This document shows positions 59,783 through 60,162 of a DNA stretch of 64,000 nucleotides, piece after piece. Where the stretch lies: the NCBI RefSeq assembly GCF_013315695.1, contig NZ_CP054353.1. One strand, 5' to 3'. The notes below the pieces were generated by a model. The model made no database searches, was not told the origin of the DNA, and worked only from the letters and a program-made list of their open reading frames with translations. A program made the translations under genes and the position numbers. The first letter of the stretch is position 1, and every line of letters begins with the position of its first letter. The stretch is from Escherichia coli. GTDB taxonomy: Bacteria; Pseudomonadota; Gammaproteobacteria; Enterobacterales; Enterobacteriaceae.

Positions 59783-60162
59783 AACAACCTCTCTTATAAT
59801 TATGGGTATTCTACGGAAACAATATACCGTGGTGAAGCTAATTTACTCGATTGCTGCGATGACTACCTCCGGGGGACAAACCTTATGTAAATACTATGGT
59901 CCTGCGGTGATAATTTGTATGTGATACACAGCAACATTTCGAGATATTCATACGGCATCTAATACTGATTTAATTCTGGCTAAAATACAGACAGATAACA
60001 AGATGAATATTTTTAATGTTTACGTTAAAAATGTTTAATATTATTTAATAGTTGTTAATTTGAATACTTCGATAATGTTATATTTCCTGATAATCATTTG
60101 CAGGCAAAATGTTTTCACCCTTAAATGAGTATTTATTCTCATAAATCGAAAAAGGATTCATT

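Follow-up and report, generated by a model that had tools for sequence, protein, structure and literature searches.

The spacer between the divergent genes ypfM and yffB is already described in Escherichia coli K-12 MG1655, where it appears in genome-wide catalogues of RNA polymerase binding, H-NS binding and transcription start sites (TSSs) (Shimada 2014, PMC3946193; Kim 2012, PMC3415461). Its counterpart in Salmonella is the region between STnc250/ypfM and yffB (STM2482). Published experiments have established H-NS occupancy at the resolution of a gene or spacer, binding of RpoD holoenzyme in the spacer, both ypfM TSSs and the Salmonella TSS of yffB. Two broader groups of described systems are also comparable. 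The 174 'H-NS-bound Core genes' of Higashi 2016 are typified by a short AT-rich patch in core surroundings of 50-55% G+C, by binding at the first gene of an operon and not at its neighbours, and by polymorphic regulatory sequence. Sigma-70 promoters of the extended -10 type (TGnTATAAT) carry a TG one base 5' of the -10 hexamer, and can combine it with a poor -35 hexamer and A/T-rich upstream DNA.

The locus analysed here is the same spacer in another E. coli strain (assembly GCF_013315695.1, contig NZ_CP054353.1), and it lies in a stretch of 64,000 nucleotides that we refer to as the window. Far from being new, it corresponds to the ypfM-yffB regulatory spacer of K-12, already known from the catalogues named above. 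The gene order in the window, namely the end of acrD (59624, plus strand), a bidirectional terminator, ypfM, the 380-bp spacer, yffB, dapE and ypfN, is that of K-12. Aligned with K-12 NC_000913.3 2590867-2591246, the spacer shows no gaps and about 99% identity, window positions being converted to NC_000913.3 by adding 2531084. Shared with the K-12 spacer are the locus, the length, the ypfM promoter TTCACC-17-TAGAAT, the RpoD holoenzyme peak and the H-NS mark. The differences are a few SNPs and our placement of the yffB core promoter, which we assign to TGtTATATT and not to the site TTCATA-16-TTTAAT proposed by Shimada 2014.

We consider it probable that the AT-rich region upstream of yffB is part of an ordinary divergent promoter spacer, in which an AT tract conserved in composition serves as an H-NS platform and as A/T-rich DNA upstream of an extended -10 element, followed by an unstructured leader. 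The features on which this reading draws are the following.

59723..59782, minus strand: ypfM, encoding the 19-aa small protein MIERELGNWKDFIEVMLRK; annotated b4606 in K-12.
59783..60162, no strand: ypfM<>yffB divergent spacer between ypfM (minus) and yffB (plus), 380 bp, G+C 0.31.
59808..59836, minus strand: ypfM promoter P1, TTCACC-17-TAGAAT, with the -10 at 59808-59813; score of at least 4 in 26 of 26 aligned sequences, and also found in the consensus scan.
59893..59953, minus strand: conserved block with the putative ypfM promoter P2 (-35 TCGAAA at 59937-59942, -10 TACAAA at 59914-59919); its right end falls within 59925-60162.
59925..60162, no strand: AT-rich region singled out in an earlier note on this DNA, 238 bp directly 5' of the yffB ATG (60163), G+C 0.256.
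59954..60075, no strand: unconserved AT tract covering about -16 to -137 of yffB, 5' of its core promoter, G+C 0.22, A/T-rich at -38 to -59; proposed H-NS platform.
60015..60022 and 60030..60037, plus strand: direct repeat AATGTTTA, 15 bp apart, at chance level and not kept outside E. coli proper.
60076..60084, plus strand: predicted yffB-dapE-ypfN core promoter, extended -10 TGtTATATT (TG 60076-60077, TATATT 60079-60084; K-12 2591160-2591168), with a weak -35 TTAATT and an 18-bp spacer.
60091..60162, plus strand: predicted yffB 5'UTR of about 72 nt, its start placed by homology; Shine-Dalgarno AAGGA at 60152-60156; AAAAGGATTC conserved.
60163..60519, plus strand: yffB (ArsC/Spx family, 118 aa), leading yffB-dapE-ypfN.
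60523..61650, plus strand: dapE, 3' of yffB and followed by ypfN.

Within E. coli the spacer is a core part of the chromosome. A 541-bp query spanning it was matched in 5425 of 5426 complete E. coli genomes, at 95-100% identity and with a median of one copy. Among nine diverse E. coli strains the AT tract has 4.9 variable sites per 100 bp and zero indels, and the present strain departs from the other eight, for example, by a C at 59980 (T in the others) and a T at 60012 (C in the others). The ypfM intergenic region is listed among the top host- or wastewater-informative SNP loci of E. coli in a 2024 source-tracking study (PMC11267920), and SNPs in the spacer therefore carry a signal of lineage or niche.

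The encoded protein also varies. YffB in this strain differs from that of K-12 at 4 of 118 residues (96.6% identity). Higashi 2016 gives a dN of 0.010 and a dS of 0.036 for yffB, compared with 0.0015 and 0.071 for dapE, which makes dN/dS much higher for yffB. YffB seems to be evolving unusually fast for a core gene.

The strong AT-richness reported in the earlier note is confirmed and lies far beyond chance. The G+C content of 59925-60162 is 0.256, compared with 0.531 for the whole window, and a value as low is reached in only 0.08% of 238-bp segments; the lowest such segment in the 64 kb starts at 59957 and has a G+C of 0.248. The strings quoted in that note exist as well, with AATGTTTA at 60015-60022 and 60030-60037 and TTATTTAATAGTTGTTAATTTG at 60041-60062. 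The direct repeat is present, but it carries no signal. Of 2000 shuffles of the region that preserved dinucleotides, 73% produced an exact direct repeat of 8 nt or longer whose copies do not overlap, and 22% an 8-mer recurring within 30 bp. The longest real repeat, AAAATGTTT (9 nt, at 60028 and 60106), was equalled in 31% of shuffles, and the copy numbers of the commonest 6-mer (four) and the commonest 7-mer (three) were reached in 17% and 20%, respectively. Both copies of AATGTTTA are invariant in the nine E. coli strains compared; the spacer alignment shows them disrupted in E. albertii and in a divergent 'E. coli' clade, and other genera lack them. The repeat is no more than chance would give, and is noise. 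A repeat search for inverted repeats in the region returned many short AT-rich pairs, none of them outstanding. Short repeats in DNA of 25% G+C need a shuffle control before they are read as signals.

The second most AT-rich stretch of the window, at 43021-43360 (about 30% G+C), is of a different kind. It lies at the junction of eutS and an accessory gene annotated 'glycosyltransferase family 4' (43336-44406), with an 81-aa ORF ahead of that gene. The interval 42900-43500 is covered to at least 80% in only 89 of the 5426 complete E. coli genomes; the insertion beside eutS is strain-variable.

For a wider comparison we used the yffB neighbourhoods of 80 species-representative genomes plus that of Salmonella enterica. 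Twenty-five spacers and the Salmonella spacer were aligned (26 sequences), and the identities given here are means over 15 other genus or species representatives relative to the window base. YpfM is nearly invariant wherever the pattern search detected it, which was at about half of the loci. In Escherichia, Citrobacter, Enterobacter, Leclercia, Silvania and Lelliottia, ypfM and yffB lie about 380-390 bp apart (380 bp here); in Salmonella the distance is 412 bp. The last 240 bp before yffB have 25-35% G+C in most Enterobacteriaceae and 34% in Salmonella, compared with 26% in the present strain. Mean identity is 0.74 over the ypfM leader and P1, 0.67 over the block 59893-59953 and 0.39 over the AT tract 59954-60075. 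It rises to 0.84 at TGTTATATT (60076-60084), falls to 0.39 in the yffB leader, and is 0.63 at the ribosome-binding site and 0.76 in the first 30 bp of yffB. The spacer is therefore a series of conserved islands (the two ypfM promoters, the extended -10 and the ribosome-binding site) between stretches of unconserved AT-rich DNA. Because its length and AT-richness are common to several genera, the AT-rich spacer is old, which argues against a recent insertion scar.

Promoters were sought with a simple sigma-70 weight-matrix scan of the 26 sequences, projected onto the alignment, and with a consensus scan requiring at least 4 of 6 matches in each hexamer. The weight-matrix scan gave three conserved promoter positions, one on the plus strand and two on the minus strand. 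The best plus-strand score in the E. coli spacer (10.0) belongs to TGtTATATT, which is promoter-like in 81% of the 26 sequences and invariant in all nine diverse E. coli strains. Its TG precedes the hexamer by one base, and the second and sixth bases of the hexamer are A and T. As in known extended -10 promoters, a -10 with 5 of 6 matches (TATATT) is accompanied by a poor -35 (TTAATT, 3/6) and by A/T-rich upstream DNA; it differs from those promoters in that the E. coli start is taken from the Salmonella orthologue. The consensus scan missed this predicted promoter because its -35 is weak. In Salmonella, the SdsR study built a yffB fusion ('-97 to +75') from a mapped TSS, and in that locus the homologous TGtTATATT ends at 1396 and the TSS (-97) is at 1404, 8 nt downstream. 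By homology with this TSS we infer that yffB transcription in E. coli starts at about 60090-60092.

Polymerase-binding data point to the same spacer. Shimada 2014 (PMC3946193) reports an RpoD holoenzyme SELEX-chip peak in the ypfM<>yffB spacer, and the Salmonella ChIP-exo study reports RpoD_Peak_1188, marked 'regulatory' for dapE; the resolution of both is too coarse to single out one promoter in the spacer. A nearby RpoS SELEX peak falls inside acrD, outside the spacer. The earlier note had suggested an UP-element-rich promoter. The promoter part of this suggestion is supported by the conserved extended -10, which lies where the Salmonella start predicts it, and by the RpoD SELEX peak in the spacer. 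The stretch from -38 to -59 (60032-60053) agrees by eye with the UP consensus NNAAAWWTWTTTTNNNAAANNN at 9 of 14 specified positions, an agreement expected anyway at 22% G+C, and the stretch is unconserved.

The predicted yffB leader shows no RNA structure beyond that of shuffled sequences (z = +0.74), and Rfam 15 gives no match in 59925-60162 even at E up to 10. The TSS list of Kim 2012 (PMC3415461) contains nothing between 2589017(-) (window 59911) and 2589359(+) (window 60253), and thus no yffB TSS near 60091 or 59981. The plus-strand TSS at 60253 (2589359 in NC_000913.2) lies inside yffB and was assigned in the same study to dapE, for which it gives a leader of 270 nt. This essential gene therefore has its own promoter, independent of the AT-rich spacer.

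On the minus strand, P1 coincides with published data. Kim 2012 (PMC3415461) mapped a ypfM TSS at 2588907(-) in NC_000913.2, which is window position 59801, with a 5'UTR of 19 nt and P1 as the upstream sequence, and Shimada 2014 (PMC3946193) gives the same promoter, TTCACC-17-TAGAAT. The upstream promoter P2 is promoter-like in 96% of the 26 sequences with a median score of 9.8; E. coli scores only 4.3. In most genera it reads TTCAAA-18-TAAAAT, and the E. coli version, TCGAAA-17-TACAAA, is degenerate. A low-count ypfM TSS at 2589017(-) (window 59911; 5'UTR of 129 nt) was also reported by Kim 2012 (PMC3415461), and at only 3 nt from TACAAA it fits the P2 -10 loosely. The minus-strand pattern of the conserved block 59893-59953 is ACTATGG...AAATTTTATGTGAC..AC.GCAAyATTTTGAAAyA. 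A CRP site (TGTGA-N6-GCAAC, 59920-59935) was considered here and rejected: its left half TGTGA (59920-59924) is perfect and its right half is poor, and the literature retrieved on yffB or ypfM reports no CRP site at this place. Because of the minus-strand TSS at 59911, the block is better read as ypfM P2 than as a CRP site. A gene for a protein of 19 aa thus keeps two conserved promoters.

The ypfM transcript itself has a described counterpart. Rfam STnc250 gives a sub-threshold match at 59624-59743 on the minus strand (37.6 bits, E = 3e-5; the gathering score is 42), which corresponds to the 3' part of the ypfM mRNA and the terminator. STnc250 is the Hfq-associated ypfM mRNA of Salmonella (Sittka 2008).

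The earlier note had further suggested DNA bound by nucleoid proteins, and published H-NS data support this at the resolution of a gene, a spacer or 874 bp. In Shimada 2014 (PMC3946193) the ypfM<>yffB spacer is marked 'HNS', meaning that it holds one of 987 H-NS genomic-SELEX sites. In the H-NS ChAP-seq data of Higashi 2016 for strains K-12, SE11 and SE15, yffB is bound in vivo (TRUE/TRUE), also when binding confined to the 3' end is excluded; the unit yffB-dapE-ypfN is counted as bound, and narQ, ypfH and dapE itself are unbound. The Salmonella ChIP-exo study assigns H-NS_Region_360, of 874 bp, to the same operon. With this occupancy and a G+C of 0.256 over 238 bp and 0.22 over 59954-60075, the region behaves like H-NS-bound AT-rich DNA, and it shares with the H-NS-bound core genes of Higashi 2016 the short AT-rich patch, the binding restricted to the first gene of the operon and the polymorphic regulatory sequence. 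Compared with the kilobase-scale H-NS filaments on acquired islands, the patch is small. The H-NS nucleation motif TCGATAAATT, searched with up to 2 mismatches, is found as TCGATAATGT at 60069 and TCGAGATATT at 59939 (2 mismatches each), and it is not discriminating, with 81 matches across the window and these 2 in the region. We infer that H-NS contacts the AT tract 59954-60075 specifically and that its binding represses yffB. The lack of a yffB TSS in Kim 2012 is compatible with silencing by H-NS and does not demonstrate it.

The Salmonella locus has the same gene order, conserved islands and H-NS and RpoD peaks, and its mapped yffB TSS gives a 5'UTR of 97 nt, about 25 nt longer than the leader predicted here. 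A MarA ChIP site, a predicted Fur site and regulation by SdsR are reported for Salmonella, all in stretches whose sequence E. coli does not share. We therefore set aside the MarA site and the predicted Fur site as E. coli features, the counterpart of each in the E. coli spacer being unconserved. A fur mutation raises Salmonella yffB 2.6-fold, and the Fur site predicted in Salmonella is at another place, within the leader (locus 1468-1485). Separately, GATAATCATTTGC (60089-60101), which overlaps the predicted yffB start, agrees with the Fur-box core GATAAT-C-ATTATC in 11 of 13 positions. This Fur-like box occurs in Escherichia, including E. albertii (with changes), and is missing in Citrobacter, Salmonella and Enterobacter.

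Other readings of the AT-rich region have to be weighed against this one, and two of them had been raised in the earlier note. It had suggested that the DNA is curved; on a reading of this kind, shape and not composition would recruit nucleoid proteins or activate the promoter. In a wedge-angle path model, of which only rank within the window is meaningful, the end-to-end ratio of the 238 bp is 0.945 (66th percentile of the window), and segments of 63 and 105 bp lie at the 88th and 79th percentiles, which is unremarkable at all three lengths. The A/T tracts at 59982, 60010, 60027, 60057, 60106, 60112 and 60149 are out of helical phase, and AA/TT power at 10-11.2 bp is exceeded by 94% of shuffles; relative to the rest of the window it ranks at the 19th percentile. 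A local 31-bp bend does peak at 44 degrees near 60092 (98.9th percentile), and H-NS is often said to prefer curved AT-rich DNA, as discussed in Shimada 2014 (PMC3946193). On balance curvature is not borne out as a property of the region, and recruitment by shape is improbable. The other suggestion was an old insertion scar. Such a scar, of a decayed IS element, a MITE or a horizontally acquired fragment, could draw on the very low G+C relative to the flanks, and on an IS1 element that landed here in one modern strain and shows that this spot accepts insertions. Yet the locus is core and single-copy, with a median of one place per genome; it has no phage match, and the near-full-length matches in the plasmid collection come from records of chromosome size or from short fragments resembling E. 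coli, while the single remaining match there is weak (34% coverage, 76.5% identity). Outstanding terminal inverted repeats are lacking, as are indels among the nine E. coli strains, the length and AT-richness of the spacer are common to at least six genera plus Salmonella, and yffB is not among the genes that Higashi 2016 counts as horizontally transferred. We regard the scar as extremely improbable, the least credible of the readings considered. The modern insertion is found in E. coli strain 81 (NZ_CP088131.1), which has IS1A in the spacer with a junction at about 59953 and aegA adjoining; this strain has lost narQ, acrD, ypfM and the leftmost 170 bp of the spacer, and the sequence from 59953 onwards, including the AT tract and the extended -10, is intact.

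A regulatory role of the AATGTTTA/TGTTTA repeat, as a site for a response regulator or other dimeric factor controlling yffB-dapE (PhoP-like through TGTTTA, CpxR-like through GTAAA on the other strand, or ArcA-like through TGTTA), fares little better than the scar and is very improbable. Two perfect TGTTTA hexamers do occur at 60017 and 60032, which is about -60 to -75 relative to the predicted yffB start, and they are invariant across the nine E. coli strains. Start-to-start spacing of half-sites is 11 for PhoP (hexamer-N5-hexamer), 10 for CpxR and 11 for ArcA. TGTTTA-N9-TGTTTA, at 15 bp start to start, fits none of these; the repeat is at chance level in shuffles, its copies are broken up in E. 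albertii and the divergent E. coli clade, Citrobacter, Salmonella and Enterobacter lack them, and the retrieved literature mentioning yffB or ypfM reports no site of the PhoP, CpxR or ArcA type here. A PhoP-box-type direct repeat is rejected on the same grounds of spacing, conservation and chance. Somewhat better placed than any of these, and still unlikely, is the proposal that the main yffB promoter is the Shimada 2014 site, with TTCATA (59948-59953), a 16-bp spacer, TTTAAT (59969-59974) and a start at about 59981, so that the AT-rich region would be mostly a 5'UTR of about 180 nt. This site is the best match under the RpoD SELEX peak (Shimada 2014, PMC3946193), it scores 6.8 with a TG two bases before the -10, and two tandem promoters are possible in E. 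coli. Its score is nevertheless below the 10.0 of TGtTATATT, it is promoter-like in only about 54% of species, the Salmonella TSS fits the downstream element, and Kim 2012 lists no TSS near 59981. A leader of about 180 nt would also be 24% G+C, unstructured, unconserved and without evident function.

Under our preferred reading of an ordinary divergent promoter spacer, 59925-60162 is the yffB-proximal two-thirds of the ypfM<>yffB spacer, core and single-copy in E. coli, and would consist of four successive functional pieces. The left edge would hold the -35 side of P2, the upstream promoter of ypfM. It would be followed by about 120 bp of AT-rich DNA (22% G+C) whose composition is conserved and whose sequence is not, then by the putative sigma-70 extended -10 promoter TGtTATATT for yffB-dapE-ypfN, and finally by a predicted leader of about 72 nt, unstructured and with the Shine-Dalgarno at its end. 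The AT tract is most likely the landing site of H-NS, which would damp transcription of yffB and possibly of ypfM. The same tract would offer RNA polymerase A/T-rich upstream DNA in place of a good -35. The essential dapE would retain its own start site within yffB (60253).

The significance of the locus is mostly limited to annotation, given that it is already in the genome-wide catalogues of RNA polymerase, H-NS and start sites. In practical terms, the likely core promoter of yffB-dapE-ypfN is TGtTATATT (K-12 2591160-2591168) and not the SELEX-derived proposal. The AT tract is a regulatory region kept in base composition and length and not in sequence, which fits the binding of a protein that reads composition. 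We offer a further-reaching version of this only tentatively, and think it rather doubtful as a whole: the tract may be kept by selection on composition alone, as a sequence-free H-NS pad that leaves yffB conditionally silent in E. coli, with dapE escaping through the H-NS-free promoter at 60253 and the Fur-like GATAATCATTTGC adding iron control. Conditional silencing of yffB by H-NS would explain the missing yffB TSS in Kim 2012. If true, the locus would show on a small scale how H-NS can gate the leading gene of a core operon, with the essential downstream gene insulated.
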